From the UHGV virus genome UHGV-1321070: a stretch of 36,303 nt of DNA. The stretch is one strand, 5' to 3'. How positions within the stretch are numbered: position 1 is the first letter of the stretch; every line of letters begins with the position of its first letter. The DNA is from a virus. Positions 4,060-11,165 of the stretch are shown here, piece by piece. The notes under the pieces were generated by a model. It was not told the origin of the DNA, searched no databases, and saw only the letters and a list, made by a program, of their open reading frames with translations. A program made the translations under genes and the position numbers.

Positions 4060-5226
4060 TTAAACCCCTTTGACAACGTCAGCGTTGACCTGTGGAACCC
4101 CGATTTCAGCGGCCAGATTCATGGCGGCTATTACCAGGTTACTGACGGCCAGCGGATACAGCAGGCTGACCATATTTTTACGGTGACTTCCCGGATTGCT
4201 CAGGCGGGCACGTATGGCATCCACTGCACCGGCGTCCATAATGTCCGTCAGCTGTTTACCGGCCCGTTGCAGTTTGAACGTCAGAAATTCTTCAAGGTTA
4301 TTGTCCAGAGGCAGAAGTTCGACCACCTCACAGCGCTGAACGACTTCACGGACTTCCATATTGCGTTCAGACAGTTTTGTCGCCAGTTCCGGCTGGCCAA
4401 TCAGCACGATGGACAGCAGTTTTTTGAAACCGGACTCCAGCTCAAAAAAGCGTTTGAGGTGTTTCAGTGTCGGAATGGGCAGACTGTGGGCCTCCTCAAT
4501 CACCAGAACGTGGCTGAACCCCGCCTGGCTGCTGTCTTTCAGGACGCGATGCAACTGGCGAAAACGGGCGTCCTGACTGCGTCTGATGCTTTCCAGTGGT
4601 GCGATGGTACTGATAATGGCTTCGGCAATAGCTGCTGCCTTCAGGGTTTTCCCTTTCACATCGTTGTCTTCCATAGCGATGATGTATGGCTCGATAACAA
4701 TTACCGGCGCATTCTCGCGGTTGATACGTTCAGTCAGGTCGCGGCGCAGCGTGGATTTACCCGCACCGGACTCACCGATGACGGCCATAAACCCACCATG
4801 ACGGGCTGTCTGGTACAGCGCCTCACGCACGTAGCGAATGTCCGGGGTGGTGAACACATCATCAGAACCCTGCATGGCTTCGTCGGCGAACGGGTCACGG
4901 AAAAGACCAAACGCTTTTTTGGTTGCTGGAAATAACACCTGTTTTTTGAGTAACATATTCTCTTCCTCACTGAGGCTCGTTTTATCTGTGGTACCCGCTG
5001 TACGGGGCGTGGCCGCGCCCTGTACAGCATCAAAACTCTTCGTTGTATCAATCCCCTGACTTTCCAGCCAGGACGCAAGACGCCGGCGCACTTCTCCGGG
5101 GCTGGTGCGGGGCCACGCGTTATGATTCACAATCTGGGCCAGCGTGGCCTCAGAAACATCGACAGCTCTCGCCACCACCGCCTGTGGAATACGGGCCTCT
5201 TTCAGTTGCTGCTTCAGTACCAGCAT
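4060..5226 (-). CDS. MuB-like AAA+ ATPase (transposition target-DNA activator) with N-terminal HTH
   Basis: Walker A GESGAGKST, Walker B-like HVLVIEEAH; start set at the Met preceded by GAGGAGGG (track ORF starts 39 nt upstream); immediately downstream of the transposase as in Mu A-B. Confidence 0.7.
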   Translation of the reverse strand: MLVLKQQLKEARIPQAVVARAVDVSEATLAQIVNHNAWPRTSPGEVRRRLASWLESQGIDTTKSFDAVQGAATPRTAGTTDKTSLSEEENMLLKKQVLFPATKKAFGLFRDPFADEAMQGSDDVFTTPDIRYVREALYQTARHGGFMAVIGESGAGKSTLRRDLTERINRENAPVIVIEPYIIAMEDNDVKGKTLKAAAIAEAIISTIAPLESIRRSQDARFRQLHRVLKDSSQAGFSHVLVIEEAHSLPIPTLKHLKRFFELESGFKKLLSIVLIGQPELATKLSERNMEVREVVQRCEVVELLPLDNNLEEFLTFKLQRAGKQLTDIMDAGAVDAIRARLSNPGSHRKNMVSLLYPLAVSNLVIAAMNLAAEIGVPQVNADVVKGV

Positions 5227-5236
5227 GTTTCCCTCC

Positions 5237-7006
5237 TCAGTTGCCGTTAACAATGCTGATAACACTGCTGCGGGCCGGTGTGGTCAGCGTGGCCATGACT
5301 TCATCCAGTGCGGCTTCCGGTACGCCGTCCGGGTACTGTGCCGTTAACTGGCGGTAATGTTCCGGCGTCCAGGTAAGGCCGTCGGCGCTGAACTTATCGC
5401 GCAGGGCTTTCGCGGCCTCCACATGAGTCATGGGACGTTGTTCAGTGCGCGGCCCGCGTACGTCAGAGGCCTGACCACGCTTCGGCATATAGGCCGGAAG
5501 TGTGGTGTCGTCGATATGTTTATACGGGTCAAGCCGCCCGCCGAACGGCAGCGCCTTCGCCTTGCGTGCGGCGGCTGCATCTGCGGCGTTGTCTGTACCG
5601 GTAACCAGCGCTTCGGTTTCTTTTGCCGCCATCTGTGCCGGGGTTTCCGGCAGGGCTTTGTAACTTTCGCCAAATACCGCCGCGCCTTCAGCAAAGCCAA
5701 ACTCGTTCTTTCTGACCTCTTCGACCAGGAAGAACGTCTCGTGGCCGTCCTCACCGGTCAGAACCACCTGTGCCACATCGCTGCGCCATGGGTTACGGGT
5801 AATCATCAGTTTTTCACCAACCAGTACGCCCGGTACCGTTGATACGTCAAATTCAGTGCCCCGGAACGAGACACGAAGTTTTGGCGTGACTTTGCGGAGT
5901 TCTGGTGCCGCCACAGCCAGTTCACGACATACCTCAACGGAAGGCGCTTTTTTCAGCTGCTCAGCAGTAATCTTCAGCCAGATATCCGTGCGGGTTTTAC
6001 CGTGGCGGCTGTGAACAGCCGTGGCGTTAAAGTGGCTGCGCCATTTCGCGGCCAGCGCGTTGAGTTCTTCCAGACTGTGAACCGGCCGGAACTTCAGACC
6101 CGGCTCCAGCTTGCGTTCGATAATGTCACGCGCCTTTTCCACCTGTCCGGTGGCGCGGGCGTTATGCGGCTTGTGCGCTATCAGGTCGATGCCCAGTGAG
6201 CGGCACATGTTTTTCGTCATACCCGCGGTGTTTGCCGAGCCGGGGTCGAGATAGAGTATTTTCGGCACGCCGTGCAGCACGTCTGCGCCGCCACGCTCCT
6301 GCATGGCGTTGATAAGCACAGAACACAGGTTCTCACCTGATTCCGCGCCCGTCACATACTCAACGTAAATCCAGCCGCTGGCATGGTCGGTAATCTCGTA
6401 ACTCCACACGCGGTCACTGGCGATACGGGCAAGGTTAGCGGGCTTGTTCTTGTAGAACTTCGCGCTGTCCATCACCTGCAGCCCTTTATGTCCATTGCTC
6501 AGGTAGTAAAGCGTGCAGAGTGAGGCGTCAATCTGCCAGACATGATTGGGATGCAGACTGGCCACTTCGGTATGTGGTGCAGGGGCATCCAGTTGTTCCG
6601 GGTGCAGGCCATAGTTACGCAGAGCACGGCTGATGGCATCTTCAGACAACGGGAAAAACTCACTGGTGGTTTCATCTGTTCTGCCTGCGGTGATAAAGCC
6701 GTTAGCCCGCAGGGTTTCCACTGCATCTGCGATGGAATAGAGACGCTTACCGTTCTTGCGGGTGGCCTCACGCAGTGTGGCAGATATCAGCGCGGCTTCG
6801 TCGCGGGTCAGGGCGCTGCGCCCGGCATCGGCGCGTTTTTTGCGTTTATCAGTCACAGAGACCTCCTTCAGCCTGCGCAGCAGAGTGGCGCGGGACATGC
6901 CAAGTTCAGCACAGGCAGCGTCGTATATTGCACCGCGTTTACCATGCCCCGCGTCACGTGCCGCGCGGGCGACATAAACCAGTCGTTCAGTCAGGGCAGC
7001 ATTCAT
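5237..7006 (-). CDS. MuA-like DDE transposase
   Basis: 589 aa; N-terminal HTH (GMSRATLLRRLKE), central integrase-core-like region (HVWQID ... D/E-rich), Mu-transposase-like C-terminal region; GGAGG RBS 7 nt upstream of the ATG. Confidence 0.8.
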   Translation of the reverse strand: MNAALTERLVYVARAARDAGHGKRGAIYDAACAELGMSRATLLRRLKEVSVTDKRKKRADAGRSALTRDEAALISATLREATRKNGKRLYSIADAVETLRANGFITAGRTDETTSEFFPLSEDAISRALRNYGLHPEQLDAPAPHTEVASLHPNHVWQIDASLCTLYYLSNGHKGLQVMDSAKFYKNKPANLARIASDRVWSYEITDHASGWIYVEYVTGAESGENLCSVLINAMQERGGADVLHGVPKILYLDPGSANTAGMTKNMCRSLGIDLIAHKPHNARATGQVEKARDIIERKLEPGLKFRPVHSLEELNALAAKWRSHFNATAVHSRHGKTRTDIWLKITAEQLKKAPSVEVCRELAVAAPELRKVTPKLRVSFRGTEFDVSTVPGVLVGEKLMITRNPWRSDVAQVVLTGEDGHETFFLVEEVRKNEFGFAEGAAVFGESYKALPETPAQMAAKETEALVTGTDNAADAAAARKAKALPFGGRLDPYKHIDDTTLPAYMPKRGQASDVRGPRTEQRPMTHVEAAKALRDKFSADGLTWTPEHYRQLTAQYPDGVPEAALDEVMATLTTPARSSVISIVNGN

Positions 7007-7934: not shown

Positions 7935-8306
7935 TTACAAACGACTACCTGAAATAACTCGTTGGTTGATTTCGTTAATACGATCCTGTGCACGCGCCAT
8001 CTCGTGACTGTGAGCCATGGCGATCTGTAGTAACTGGATTCCCGGTGCGAAACGTCCGTTCTCTAATTTCATGGCCAGTCCCTCTTCAATAAGGGTATTA
8101 AGTGCTCGATTGATATTCGCCGGGGACTCCCCCAGGGCTGATGCCAGTTCACCGTTAGAAACACCGTTCAGAGCATGACCGCGTAGAGCTTTGAGTACAC
8201 GTAGGATGCGGGTCCCAGAACTGGAAATATTTACTTTACTCATGTCACATTTCCATTTTTGCAATATGTGATAACCTGTTGCATATGTGGAAAATTTATG
8301 CCGCAT
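7935..8306 (-). CDS. Winged-helix DNA-binding protein (MarR/IclR-like HTH)
   Basis: 123 aa; segment GTRILRVLKALRGHALNGVSNGELASALGESPANINRALNTLIEEGL is a typical wHTH. Overlaps the ner-like gene by 11 bp; an internal start (MSKVNISS) is possible. Confidence 0.45.
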   Translation of the reverse strand: MRHKFSTYATGYHILQKWKCDMSKVNISSSGTRILRVLKALRGHALNGVSNGELASALGESPANINRALNTLIEEGLAMKLENGRFAPGIQLLQIAMAHSHEMARAQDRINEINQRVISGSRL

Positions 8307-8484
8307 TTGACGTGGGTTTTAATCCCAGTTTTACGGCAATTTCATGGGCTTTGCCGTAACGAGCTTTGGTCTGTCCATTGAGAACACGATAGACCTCATT
8401 GCGGCTGTAGCCGTGTTCTTCGGCCCAGCGGGTAAACGTGATACCACGCTGACGGAAGAGATTTTTAACTTGTTCGGAAGTCAT
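8296..8484 (-). CDS. Ner/Cro-like small DNA-binding regulator (first gene of early operon)
   Basis: 62 aa HTH protein (RWAEEHGYSRNEVYRVLNG) at the head of the leftward early operon, divergent from the repressor gene: the position Ner occupies in Mu. Confidence 0.55.
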   Translation of the reverse strand: MTSEQVKNLFRQRGITFTRWAEEHGYSRNEVYRVLNGQTKARYGKAHEIAVKLGLKPTSNAA

Positions 8485-8534
8485 TGTTGTCTCCTTTGTT
8501 GATGCAATGATGTTTGTTTTATATGTGATAGATT

Positions 8535-8996
8535 ATGAGAACTATTGTTCTCATTGTCAATGAGGTTTATGTGAATTTTGATTCTCTTTGCGCGTCGCGG
8601 TTCAAAGCTGAGCGTTCGCGGTTATCACTCAAGCAGGCTGAAGTAGCAGCCCTTTGTGGCGTTTCAAGAGAAATGTGGGGGAAATATGAACGAGGGGTTG
8701 CTGTTCCCGGAGGTGAGTTACTTGCAGCCTTTGCAAGAATTGGGGCCAATGTACAGTTCATTCTTACCGGGGAGTCATCAGGTATAACTTTATCACGTGA
8801 TGAAATGGAGTTACTGCAGCACTACCGGCAGGCACCATTACAGGTCAAAGGTTCAGTTTTGTCGGCCTTGACTACTGGCTCCTCCAGAGAACGGGCGGAA
8901 CAGGTTATTCATGGAGATGTTCTGGGGAATGTTATCAAAGGTAACGTAACCATAGGAACAGGTGGAATAATGAACAAAAATACCAAGAGAAGATGA
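8535..8996 (+). CDS. XRE-family HTH repressor (candidate immunity repressor c)
   Basis: HTH LSLKQAEVAALCGVSREMWGKYERG; divergent from the early operon. The true start may be the GTG at 8571, which follows a GAGG RBS and would place the palindrome upstream of the gene. Confidence 0.65.
   Translation: MRTIVLIVNEVYVNFDSLCASRFKAERSRLSLKQAEVAALCGVSREMWGKYERGVAVPGGELLAAFARIGANVQFILTGESSGITLSRDEMELLQHYRQAPLQVKGSVLSALTTGSSRERAEQVIHGDVLGNVIKGNVTIGTGGIMNKNTKRR
8537..8552. promoter_or_regulatory. Candidate operator: perfect palindrome GAGAACTATTGTTCTC
   Basis: 6-bp arms GAGAAC/GTTCTC around TATT in the divergent ner-like / repressor control region. Confidence 0.45.
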
Positions 8997-9979
8997 GTAA
9001 AGAGAAGCAAACAGTTAACGGGGATGTGGGTAACGTTGTCAGCGGTGATGTTACCATTCATAACTATTCTGCTGACATACTTCCTTCGGCCCAGCAACCA
9101 ATTTCGTTGCTGCAAAAACGCGATTTACACAGATTGATGGATGAATTGGTTGATCTGGGGGAAAGTAAGCGCGAGCTATGGATGACGATCCACACGAAAC
9201 TTAATACCAAAACAGTTAATGAAATGACTGCGGCTGATTATCATGGTGCGGTTGAGATCCTTCAGAGATATGCACAACAGATCCAGAATATGAAGGACTG
9301 TAATCTTCTGGTCAGCAAAATAATGGCGCTTACTGACCCTGGGTATCGTCTTGACCGTGACAGATACTGTCTGAAGCATTTCGGTACAACCCATCTTAAA
9401 GGCCTAGACAAAGAGCAGTTGCAGGCTGTGTTTGGTTATTTTGATGATCTGCTGAATATTCGTGATGAGAGTAAAACTCTATCACCTCCATCGGAAAGCG
9501 GTGCAAAATCAGTCGCAACTGTACCAACCAGAAGCCGGAAGCCTCATGTAGTAGTGTTGGGGGGAGTGTTAGTTCTTGTAGCAATATTTTTCGTGGGAAT
9601 GATTGTGTTCGCTGGTAAATGGGGAAATGCCAAAGCAGTAGCTTCTACTGAAACCAGCGTTTTTAACATTAAAACCAACGATAAAATAATAGAAGATTCC
9701 ATCCCCGCACTGCGCAGCATGTTTCCAGGGTTAAATAAGTACTCAGATGATTTCCATTCGGTTTCAAGCTACAAGCAAAAAACGGGCTGGCATACCCTTA
9801 AATTTACTGTATCAGCAAAGGCATCCGTCCCCGAAAATTATAGTGTTAAGGGCAAGGTTTGTTACATTAACATAAGCCCTGATGGTAGTTATGCTCGGGT
9901 TTTGACTGCTCCATGTCGTTCACTGCTACTTGATCAGCAAAGCACTCCTGACAGTAAATACCGTTTTATTCTTAAATAG
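8993..9979 (+). CDS. Single-pass membrane protein of unknown function (328 aa), translationally coupled to the repressor
   Basis: Start ATG overlaps the repressor stop (ATGA). One TM helix (VVVLGGVLVLVAIFFVGMIVFAG) separates a ~185-aa N-terminal domain from a ~120-aa C-terminal domain; visibly AT-richer than the backbone. Confidence 0.55.
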   Translation: MSKEKQTVNGDVGNVVSGDVTIHNYSADILPSAQQPISLLQKRDLHRLMDELVDLGESKRELWMTIHTKLNTKTVNEMTAADYHGAVEILQRYAQQIQNMKDCNLLVSKIMALTDPGYRLDRDRYCLKHFGTTHLKGLDKEQLQAVFGYFDDLLNIRDESKTLSPPSESGAKSVATVPTRSRKPHVVVLGGVLVLVAIFFVGMIVFAGKWGNAKAVASTETSVFNIKTNDKIIEDSIPALRSMFPGLNKYSDDFHSVSSYKQKTGWHTLKFTVSAKASVPENYSVKGKVCYINISPDGSYARVLTAPCRSLLLDQQSTPDSKYRFILK

Positions 9980-10060
9980 AAAATAACAGCTGAATTACCA
10001 TGGGATCAGAAAAAAGACAAAGGCGGCATCATGCTGCGTTCTGAAATTTTAATGTAAAAG

Positions 10061-10651
10061 GTGATGAACATGGCAGGGATTCAGGTTATCGCAGGAAGTT
10101 TTCCTAAAGGGTGGGCAAGCATGGGGTTCGGTACCATCGTGTTTGCCAAAAAACCAAAACAAGGCTTTCCTGAAAATATTGTATTAAATCTGAAAGAAGA
10201 GCTTTTATCGATTGAACTTGCGGATAGTGAAGAGGAAAGCCGTATAGGTAAGGCGGCAGGCGCAGGTTTGCTTGGTGGATTAATCTTTGGTGGTGCAGGG
10301 TTGGTCATTGGAGGTTTGCTTGGTGCGGCGGACAAGACGAAAAAAACTATCACTTTTAAGGCAATGTTTACGGGAAATAGGTTACTTCTGGCTAAAACAG
10401 ATTCAAAAACTTTTGTAAAACTTCAGTCAATTGCTGCTGATAATGCCCATAACGCATCTGTAATCAACATGAAGCAAACTAACAGGGGCGATGTTTCTTC
10501 TCGTAAACAACTAACAGAAAATCCACAGCAGCAAGACTTACCTGCGCCCGCTACAACAGTAAAAATGACTGCCAAAGATAAGTTAGAATCGGCTCTTGGG
10601 CTGGGAATCATCGTTATAGCTGTTTGGGCAATAATACACTTCTTTTTTTAG
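10061..10651 (+). CDS. Glycine-zipper membrane protein of unknown function (196 aa)
   Basis: GKAAGAGLLGGLIFGGAGLVIGGLLGAA glycine-zipper segment plus a C-terminal TM anchor (LGLGIIVIAVWAIIHFFF); same strand as the repressor; followed by a terminator. Confidence 0.5.
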   Translation: MMNMAGIQVIAGSFPKGWASMGFGTIVFAKKPKQGFPENIVLNLKEELLSIELADSEEESRIGKAAGAGLLGGLIFGGAGLVIGGLLGAADKTKKTITFKAMFTGNRLLLAKTDSKTFVKLQSIAADNAHNASVINMKQTNRGDVSSRKQLTENPQQQDLPAPATTVKMTAKDKLESALGLGIIVIAVWAIIHFFF

Positions 10652-10653
10652 TG

Positions 10654-10678
10654 CAGCCCTTCAGGGCTGTTTCTGTTC
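10654..10678 (+). terminator. Rho-independent terminator-like hairpin between convergent genes
   Basis: CAGCCC-TTCA-GGGCTG stem-loop followed by TTTCTGTT; sits 3 nt after the TAG of the 196-aa gene and just past the stop of the convergent P-loop gene. Confidence 0.55.
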
Positions 10679-10688
10679 AGGAGGTATC

Positions 10689-11165
10689 TTAAGGATTATC
10701 CGGGGCGTTTTCCTGTTTGCCGTACTTCGGAGACGAACAACATTCTGTTGGCTGACCGGTGAGTTTACGTAACTCCTTCATGAGCAGCTCCTGATCGTAA
10801 ACTGTCATCAGTGCCGCAATGGTGGCATGCAGTGCATCGGGCAGTATCCAGGGTTGCCGGCCCGTGGGGCATATAACATCCAGCAGCTCATTCGTCCGAC
10901 AGATACGCTCCTCGCCGTATGACAACAGGCCCTGTCCCGTGTATTCCTCCAGCCTGATCACTGTGCCACCCCGTGGCTTCTGCCAGGTCGTCAGATCTTC
11001 GCCATTCATACGGCGCTCATTCTCCACGTCAGCAGCATCGACAATGACGCTGTTTCCGAGTTCCTGTTTCACCATCTCTTCTATCCGCGCCAGTACGTAA
11101 CTTTTACCGCTGCCCACAGGACCGGACACAGTGACAGTGATGACCGGATTCAGTGTGTGCGTCAT
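10689..11165 (-). CDS. Small P-loop NTPase of unknown function (158 aa)
   Basis: Walker A GPVGSGKS near the N-terminus and an acidic stretch (VIVDAADVE) that could be Walker B; convergent with the two preceding genes, divergent from the lysis operon. Confidence 0.5.
   Translation of the reverse strand: MTHTLNPVITVTVSGPVGSGKSYVLARIEEMVKQELGNSVIVDAADVENERRMNGEDLTTWQKPRGGTVIRLEEYTGQGLLSYGEERICRTNELLDVICPTGRQPWILPDALHATIAALMTVYDQELLMKELRKLTGQPTECCSSPKYGKQENAPDNP

Follow-up and report, generated by a model that had tools for sequence, protein, structure and literature searches.

Lysogenic operon of a BcepMu-type prophage

The window, the whole 36,303-nucleotide stretch of UHGV virus genome UHGV-1321070 that was analysed, is a complete 36.3-kb BcepMu-type transposable prophage of Escherichia coli, and its region 8535-10651 is the lysogenic (immunity) operon of this prophage. 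Three plus-strand open reading frames (ORFs) were found there, coding for a phage repressor, a membrane-anchored protein with an Flk_N domain (ORF2) and a glycine-zipper membrane protein (ORF3). The operon is built in two layers, with the repressor and ORF2 in one and ORF3 in the other, and a motif at the tail of the repressor is repeated at the N-terminus of ORF2. Features are given below with lengths in amino acids (aa) or base pairs (bp).

8535-8996, plus strand: repressor ORF as annotated, from ATG 8535
8571-8996, plus strand: repressor from its likely start, GTG 8571 (141 aa, GAGG at 8562-8565)
8898-8966, plus strand: tail motif of the repressor, EQVIHGDVLGNVIKGNVTIGTGG (class A)
8967-8993, plus strand: basic end of the repressor, IMNKNTKRR, directly after the tail motif
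8993-9979, plus strand: ORF2, 328 aa, predicted bitopic inner-membrane protein
9011-9067, plus strand: N-terminal motif copy of ORF2, TVNGDVGNVVSGDVTIHNY
9548-9616, plus strand: single transmembrane helix of ORF2 (residues ~186-208)
9653-9976, plus strand: predicted periplasmic alpha/beta domain of ORF2 (residues ~221-328), with two conserved Cys
10070-10651, plus strand: ORF3, 193 aa from ATG 10070 (196 aa from GTG 10061)
10253-10330, plus strand: glycine zipper of ORF3, AAGAGLLGGLIFGGAGLVIGGLLGAA, inserted in a beta-rich (PH-like) N-terminal domain
10577-10648, plus strand: C-terminal transmembrane helix of ORF3, LGLGIIVIAVWAIIHFFF
10653-10670, plus strand: terminator-like hairpin GCAGCCC-UUCA-GGGCUGU (7-bp stem, 5 G-C pairs), closing the operon

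The original prediction, made from the sequence alone, had read ORF2 and ORF3 as a two-gene membrane module arranged behind the repressor like lambda cI-rexA-rexB. All of its anatomy was recovered, with small corrections. Both genes followed the repressor on the same strand, the ATG of the 328-aa ORF2 (8993-8995) overlapped the repressor TGA (8994-8996) as ATGA, ORF2 had one hydrophobic segment, and the closing hairpin was found, with a modest U-run (UUCUGUU, extending the feature to 10680). Both products were membrane proteins without a characterised function. The glycine zipper of ORF3 was present as described; its length was more likely 193 aa than the 196 aa given, and its additional C-terminal transmembrane helix had gone unmentioned.

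The repressor tail is repeated at the N-terminus of ORF2

The repressor ended in ...EQVIHGDVLGNVIKGNVTIGTGGIMNKNTKRR (motif core IHGDVLGNVIKGNVTIG) and ORF2 began with MSKEKQTVNGDVGNVVSGDVTIHNYS... (motif core NGDVGNVVSGDVTIH), so that the two neighbouring genes share one motif, about 20-25 aa long and punctuated with Gly, Val and Asn residues, which lies C-terminally in the first product and N-terminally in the second. Alignment of the last 40 aa of the repressor with the first 40 aa of ORF2 (Smith-Waterman, BLOSUM62) gave a score of 55, the highest among all 2,352 tail-by-head combinations in the window; the other 38 adjacent gene pairs scored 16.7 +/- 3.4. The two copies lay about 100 bp apart on the same strand.

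The motif was the best-conserved stretch of the ORF2 family, with at least 90% conservation at G10, G13-G18 and V20-I22 among 22 homologues. The repressor tail was likewise nearly invariant in homologues from E. coli, Salmonella, Yersinia and Serratia, even where the helix-turn-helix (HTH) domain had diverged.

Tail and N-terminus match by class across prophages

Gene neighbourhoods of Flk_N were collected from 25 genome loci (Enterobacterales, Pseudomonas) and 31 viral-contig loci, plus individual look-ups. At essentially all loci, a XRE-type repressor of 127-171 aa carrying the matching tail motif stood directly upstream of Flk_N in the same orientation, the two genes being -4 to 22 nucleotides apart. 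The motif fell into three classes.

Class A: repressor tail GDVLGNVIKGNVTIG; Flk_N N-terminus GDVGNVVSGDVTIH
Class B: repressor tail INISGQGNRVAGRDFNENKK, ending at the stop; Flk_N N-terminus MTVNSTGEQNRVAGRDFNENK
Class C: repressor tail KQTFHGAVGQAVAGNITNKSGVTFNVGD; Flk_N N-terminus SQDFHGxVGQxAxGDINNYGxNINL

Tail and N-terminus belonged to the same class in 62 of 63 repressor/Flk_N pairs (A-A 9, B-B 24, C-C 29), all taken from BcepMu-like and P2-like prophages and phylogenetically related to one another. The remaining pair carried neither motif, and cross-class pairs were absent (0/63). Among 26 non-redundant pairs, cognate termini had a mean score of 50.7, compared with 19.1 +/- 4.3 for shuffled N-termini and about 16 for internal-segment controls. 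When classes were compared, the cognate mean was 52.1 and the cross-class mean 20.6 +/- 4.9, equal to the shuffle background, so that the three classes were mutually unrecognisable.

In six-frame scans, the class-A window and 12 of 13 class-B loci each contained the motif exactly two times; the scan of class-B locus L025 gave one regular-expression hit. Identical residues of the two copies were encoded by the same codon in 106 of 257 cases (41%), which argues that the match has been kept at the protein level and does not stem from recent duplication or gene conversion. The codon differences also led to rejection of a repeat or operator in the DNA as the source of the match.

The order repressor then Flk_N was shared by BcepMu-like prophages (the window, L002, L005, L008, L030, L037-L066, L070) and by P2-like prophages (L007, L011, L022), where the Flk_N cassette lay in the lysogenic operon with the C repressor on one side and the integrase on the other. 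The cassette thus occurred in two unrelated types of temperate phage. Homologues of the repressor and of ORF2 shared contigs, and repressors without the motif also lacked an Flk_N gene (L006, L067-69, L072, L075-76). There is one real exception to the pairing, L064/L065. Five other apparent exceptions among the loci were traced to gene-calling problems or inserted genes.

About 10 of the 31 class-C loci, as well as L034, encoded additional small membrane proteins with the local motif class at their N-terminus. These proteins were ~130-150 aa long and consisted of the N-terminal motif, a linker helix and two transmembrane segments. The motif therefore appears as a modular address common to the repressor and several membrane proteins. 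Their positions were:

L041: 4303-4695
L034: 3005-3463
L038, L039, L046, L048-50, L055, L057 and L059: about 1-1.3 kb downstream of Flk_N

A tblastn search with four family members against 50,697 deposited phage genome records recovered the Flk_N gene in one phage only, the P2-like Escherichia phage 520873 (two records; L007), where it is unannotated and frameshifted (4784-5396). A locus scan with P0048 returned no loci.

The gene after Flk_N usually encoded a secreted or membrane-anchored envelope protein (L030 4135-4872, L041 3646-4203, L011 4153-4887, L022 4129-4743). Some of these proteins shared a Cys-containing domain (…FG.TI..PLG.C…RSWW.AQ…), which also extended the periplasmic-domain lipoproteins P0057 and P0089 at their C-terminus.

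Repressor gene and candidate operators

The true start of the repressor is probably GTG 8571 rather than the annotated ATG 8535, judging from the GAGG upstream of it and from the homologues of Salmonella and E. coli 2014C-3075, for which the corresponding start was called. The protein was made up of a XRE/P22-C2-type HTH, a conserved helical middle, the tail motif and the basic end. Its HTH matched Pfam HTH_31/HTH_3 and the N-domain of P22 C2 (E 9e-5), and its C-terminal half comprised a short helical region and the tail. The Pfam scan returned HTH families only and no C-terminal S24 peptidase domain, setting this repressor apart from the self-cleaving LexA/lambda CI type; none of the motif-tailed repressors had an S24 self-cleavage domain in Pfam.

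A perfect palindrome (8535-8554; 8+8 bp, ATGAGAAC-TATT-GTTCTCAT) was located between the ner-like gene and the repressor gene and covered the annotated ATG 8535. It overlapped the spacer of a minus-strand promoter-like site, TTGACA-17-CATAAT (8560 to 8532), and looks like a candidate operator of the early promoter. A XRE HTH, a divergent ner-like gene and a palindrome over an early promoter-like site are together the features of a CI/C2-type immunity repressor. Two other candidate operators were observed in the vicinity, a 10-bp direct repeat ATATGTGATA at 8264-8273 and 8521-8530, and a TGAGAAC half-site at 8376-8386 inside the ner-like gene.

ORF2 joins an Flk_N domain to a periplasmic domain

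ORF2 was matched over its full length by phrog_10002; precomputed PF27202 (Flk_N) was assigned to P0001, its identical cluster representative, and to several homologues. The NCBIfam Flk model matched residues 19-147 (E 2.9e-12). Its 46.6 bits were far from the equivalog cut-off of 353 (PRK10715) and covered only profile positions 14-143 of 339, and ORF2 had one Flk_N domain plus a periplasmic domain, unlike the two-repeat Flk. In a local Pfam copy, from which the PF27202 model was missing, neither ORF2 nor ORF3 had a significant match. Profile searches against PDB sequences found no match, nor did Foldseek against PDB and BFVD at E <= 1e-3.

In the AlphaFold2 (AF2) model of ORF2, built from a 22-sequence alignment, residues 1-29 were unstructured, with a predicted local distance difference test (pLDDT) of 43-45. 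Residues 30-160 formed a confident helical domain corresponding to Flk_N (pLDDT 80-96), the linker and transmembrane segment were of low confidence, and residues 221-328 formed a confident alpha/beta domain (pLDDT 83-95). The basic stretch RSRKPH before the transmembrane helix would, by the positive-inside rule, place the N-terminus and its motif in the cytoplasm.

A profile search of 1.84 billion representatives yielded 112 relatives of ORF2. Judging from these sequences, ORF2 is a fusion of two modules usually found apart. The first occurred elsewhere as tail-anchored Flk_N proteins of about 190-220 aa; the second as lipoproteins or signal-anchored proteins, about 135-185 aa long, in the same prophage slot, with the C-terminal domain and its two conserved Cys. 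At L070 (2987-4414) the repressor was followed by a separate 189-aa Flk_N protein and then by a separate 137-aa periplasmic-domain lipoprotein, which shows that ORF2 arose through fusion of neighbouring genes. The periplasmic-domain lipoprotein also stood alone behind motif-less repressors (KP12_2 and L075/76), and a distant relative of this domain, P0081, was fused to Ltp repeats. ORF2 itself had no match to PF07553 (Ltp repeat) and no lipobox, as opposed to Ltp-type exclusion lipoproteins. An exclusion role for its periplasmic domain is possible.

The search also recovered chromosomal Flk-like proteins with two or three tandem Flk_N repeats and a C-terminal anchor, without a terminal motif (P0135, P0141, P0144). 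Chromosomal Flk may be related to the prophage Flk_N proteins by domestication and duplication.

ORF3 occupies an exchangeable slot

The start of ORF3 is more likely ATG 10070 than GTG 10061; the former has a AAAGGTGA ribosome-binding site and was the start chosen by PGAP and by the PHROG profile. ORF3 belonged to the PH_gly_zipper family (PF27000; phrog_12025), its homologues P0026, P0027, P0032, P0033 and P0036 (66-97% identity) carrying precomputed PF27000. It is a tail-anchored protein, and its predicted secondary structure ran through four strands, the Gly zipper, two strands, a helix, a variable linker and the C-terminal transmembrane helix, in agreement with the Pfam name. The AF2 model (pLDDT 35.7) was too poor for a fold search.

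What follows the repressor varied in related prophages, as the original prediction had proposed to check. Behind the repressor and ORF2 were found:

Salmonella (L002): an 89-aa soluble protein
Yersinia (L005): a 249-aa membrane protein
E. coli DEF2 (L071): a 203-aa protein and a DUF2441 protein
E. coli 2014C-3075 (L073): nothing comparable

Conversely, in Citrobacter-type prophages (L067-69) the ORF3 family stood directly behind an unrelated 121-aa CI-type repressor, without ORF2; the family was listed in 364 blocks of the collection. As ORF3 was replaced or absent behind repressor and ORF2, and found without ORF2, it is best described as exchangeable cargo of the slot, ORF2 belonging with the repressor. 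ORF3 would be an independently acquired lysogenic-conversion gene, with a possible role in exclusion or abortive infection.

A hairpin between ORF2 and ORF3 was rejected as a terminator, being no more stable than shuffled sequence (z -1.25). Translational coupling and the lack of a convincing terminator before 10653 make expression of ORF2 and ORF3 from the lysogenic transcript plausible.

Immunity block within the prophage

A 3.4-kb probe around the operon was found at 100% identity in dozens of complete genomes and was covered to at least 80% in 98 of 5,426 complete E. coli genomes, at differing chromosomal positions, which fits the expectation for a transposable phage. In strain AR_0015 the element began directly after grxA, and the window corresponded to the entire prophage. 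The main features outside the operon were:

Early arm, minus strand: Mor <- ... <- Gam <- B-like ATPase <- rve transposase <- DUF3102 protein <- small HTH <- ner-like gene
5237-7006, minus strand: rve transposase
8296-8484, minus strand: ner-like gene (phrog_925), divergent from the repressor
10689-11165, minus strand: P-loop ATPase gene, convergent, truncated (158 aa)
Divergent arm, plus strand: repressor, ORF2, ORF3; then the convergent P-loop ATPase gene, holin, SLT endolysin and late genes

The early arm was inverted and the repressor operon faced the lysis genes, a layout of BcepMu and not of Mu, so that the yardstick of the original prediction, that Mu has only c at this position, was not apt. 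Its observation of an AT-rich region was accurate: the repressor, ORF2 and ORF3 genes had a G+C of 0.42-0.46, against 0.544 for the whole window. Its reading of this composition as acquired cargo did not suit ORF2, which was co-inherited with the repressor type in two phage lineages and shared its motif. The low-G+C block started from ~7500 and took in the ner-like gene and the repressor itself, and thus represents the whole immunity region rather than cargo alone.

The right edge of the block was sharp. The product of the truncated ATPase gene corresponded, at 97% identity, to residues 1-157 of a homologue of 247 aa from sister prophages of the ST131 type, and DNA similarity to these prophages set in at ~10701 of the window, both indicating a right-hand mosaic or recombination boundary of the low-G+C immunity block. 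The truncated neighbour gene, together with the position and variability of ORF3, suggests that ORF3 is recently exchanged cargo. About 500 E. coli genomes contained a related prophage in which the repressor was a different one, of 112 aa, and both ORF2 and ORF3 were missing. No Rfam family reached the gathering threshold in the window.

Coupling of the repressor to the membrane

The reading favoured here, with a probability of about 0.55, is that repressor and ORF2 form a conserved cassette in which the motif couples the repressor to a membrane protein, ORF3 being a separate cargo layer. The data show the gene anatomy, the co-inheritance, the matching of the motif with its co-variation by class, and the independence of ORF3; the physical interaction, the direction of signalling and the biological output are inferred. 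The gene pair has a likeness to amyloid-signalling pairs. Such pairs include fungal HET-S/NWD2 and bacterial BASS1-10 (Bell/NLR) (bioRxiv 10.1101/2020.01.06.895854) and Bab/Agp (BASS11) of an E. coli prophage defence island, where gene 1 carries the motif C-terminally and gene 2 N-terminally (bioRxiv 10.1101/2024.11.07.622273). The likeness lies in the layout: adjacent genes and a Gly-punctuated motif of ~20-25 aa, at the C-terminus and then at the N-terminus, in discrete classes that match within the pair and with several clients per motif. Such a combination is diagnostic of amyloid-signalling pairs, and the cassette, like Bab/Agp, is prophage-borne in E. coli. The carriers differ. The C-terminal carrier was here a DNA-binding HTH repressor instead of a pore-forming Bell/HeLo cell-death domain, the N-terminal carrier a tail-anchored Flk_N membrane protein instead of an NLR/STAND or TPR sensor, and class B was short and charged, unlike the motifs of those pairs.

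Under the favoured reading, the two motif copies would pair directly through beta-strand or cross-beta stacking, as in amyloid-signalling pairs, and ORF2 would tether, template or hand over the repressor. The membrane or periplasmic state would thereby be coupled to repressor activity, and so to maintenance or induction of lysogeny without the SOS/RecA route. By analogy with NLR systems, the Flk_N carrier would be the sensor and the repressor the effector, and the fused periplasmic domain would make ORF2 of the window a one-piece link from the periplasm to the repressor. The output could be induction, stabilisation of lysogeny or something else. A more specific version, in which periplasm-driven clustering or conformational change of Flk_N templates the repressor tails in a prion-like cross-beta relay, switching the repressor off or protecting it, is tentative, and we would rate it well below even odds.

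Several observations weigh against the favoured reading. Within a class, non-cognate partners scored 49.5, against 52.1 for cognate ones; as cognate partners are no better and the loci are related, the data amount to three independent matched 'alleles' without fine-scale co-evolution. In the Flk_N subfamily of L064/L065 (1066-2225), an N-terminal helix preceded an internal motif, IKVKGNNANINFGTQLNF, and the upstream repressor lacked a tail motif. The AF2 monomer left the motif unstructured (pLDDT <50), and class B (GNRVAGRDFNE) is short, charged and unlike a typical amyloid core. The occurrence of the periplasmic domain alone behind motif-less repressors suggests that this domain has a function of its own and that its fusion to Flk_N could be incidental. 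Finally, Flk_N is homologous to the flagellar regulator Flk, which would suggest another kind of target.

Alternative explanations

Control of a repressor through its tail or at the membrane has precedents. The C-terminal tail of the Mu repressor is a control point for ClpXP, lambda CIII acts on the turnover of CII by way of the membrane-bound FtsH, and Mlc is sequestered at the membrane by PtsG. These systems resemble the cassette in having a regulatory C-terminal tail on a transposable-phage repressor, or in repressor inactivation by a membrane protein, but none of them puts a copy of the repressor tail on the partner and none uses an Flk_N protein. They bring up a related explanation, in which the motif is a shared tag or decoy read by a host factor, for instance an AAA+ protease such as FtsH, ClpXP or Lon, and ORF2 competes with or delivers the repressor and so sets its turnover. 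Such a tag would explain why the repressor and one or two membrane proteins carry identical motif classes, and it agrees with the location of the motif at exposed termini, unstructured in the AF2 model, and with the basic cluster (KRR, KK or KKK) in which every repressor tail ended. Three mutually unrecognisable classes in closely related hosts are nonetheless hard to fit with one conserved receptor, and protease tags rarely tolerate placement at the N-terminus in one copy and at the C-terminus in the other; a shared tag was therefore considered unlikely. That the match is due to chance, or is a functionless remnant of a local duplication or gene conversion between neighbours, seems scarcely credible. 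The closeness of the copies on one strand would agree with such a remnant, but the match persisted through three divergent classes, in both phage lineages and across many genera, the motif was the most conserved part of both proteins and was carried by further genes of the locus, and only 41% of the identical residues shared a codon.

The Rex-like module of the original prediction would make ORF2 and ORF3 a lysogen-expressed exclusion or abortive-infection system, with a sensor and a membrane effector depolarising the cell or blocking DNA entry. Like rexA-rexB behind lambda cI, both genes lay downstream of a prophage repressor on the predicted lysogenic transcript and both coded for membrane proteins, and ORF3 had a glycine zipper, as is found in pore-forming proteins. 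The periplasmic domain of ORF2 recurred as a stand-alone small lipoprotein directly behind prophage repressors, as do exclusion lipoproteins such as Ltp of TP-J34, and one of its relatives was fused to Ltp repeats, the domain of that known superinfection-exclusion lipoprotein, although ORF2 of the window had neither these repeats nor a lipobox. The slot behind the repressor also varied as moron slots do. However, ORF2 and ORF3 were not co-inherited but segregated independently (L002, L005, L071, L073; L067-69), and the profile and structure searches gave no sequence or fold similarity to Rex or other defence proteins (PADLOC, Pfam, NCBIfam, PHROGs, PDB, Foldseek). PADLOC, with RexA/RexB models included, gave a chance-level match only for ORF2 (PDC-M19B, E 0.014) and none for ORF3. 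RexB has four transmembrane segments, compared with the Gly zipper and one transmembrane segment of ORF3, and ORF2, unlike Rex, was tied to the repressor by the shared motif, which a Rex-like role leaves unexplained. The original prediction was thus right about the position in the lysogenic operon and about envelope proteins in a variable slot, but ORF2 and ORF3 are not inherited as one unit, and a Rex-like system is improbable, to about the same degree as the shared tag.

ORF2 might instead act as Flk does, on the flagellar type III export gate, altering flagellar assembly (for example against flagellotropic phages), the motif being unrelated to repression. In Salmonella and E. coli, Flk (Fluke/RflH) faces the cytoplasm, held by an anchor at its C-terminus, and keeps the export apparatus locked in early mode (PMC13344023). 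It shares with ORF2 a homologous cytoplasm-facing Flk_N helical domain and an inner-membrane transmembrane helix C-terminal to this domain; the N-domain of ORF2 matched both NCBIfam Flk and Pfam Flk_N, and the profile search recovered Flk-like two-repeat proteins. By contrast, Flk is chromosomal, acts on the flagellar export specificity switch, and has two Flk_N repeats, no terminal motif, no periplasmic domain and no adjacent repressor. With the ORF2 score far under the equivalog cut-off, and the constant adjacency to a motif-tailed repressor left unexplained, a flagellar role is very unlikely, more so than either a Rex-like unit or a shared tag.

Significance for lysogeny control

The pairing of a repressor with Flk_N was not described in the literature on prophage repressors searched with amyloid, tail-anchored or BcepMu, and the BASS-motif and motif-detection papers searched did not mention repressors, HTH proteins or prophage regulators. 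The cassette would bring the matched-motif (amyloid-signalling-type) principle to a phage repressor. Roughly 100 of the 5,426 complete E. coli genomes carried the cassette, as did many other Enterobacterales and Pseudomonas; it was nearly absent from the 50,697 deposited phage genomes searched, so that it has probably escaped study.

For annotation, genes of the ORF2 type should not be taken for defence cargo; the slot behind them holds the rotating cargo of envelope proteins. The Flk_N fold gains a second biological context, which may inform how Flk works. The exit from lysogeny of Mu/BcepMu-type and P2-type prophages without a RecA-cleavable repressor is poorly understood, and a class-specific motif common to the repressor and its membrane partners points to a concrete link between the envelope and the genetic switch. 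Such a link would extend the matched-motif principle of amyloid signalling from cell-death effectors to the control of transcription. If true, the prion-like relay would be the first amyloid-signalling-type switch controlling lysogeny, and an SOS-independent route of induction or immunity in transposable and P2-like prophages.

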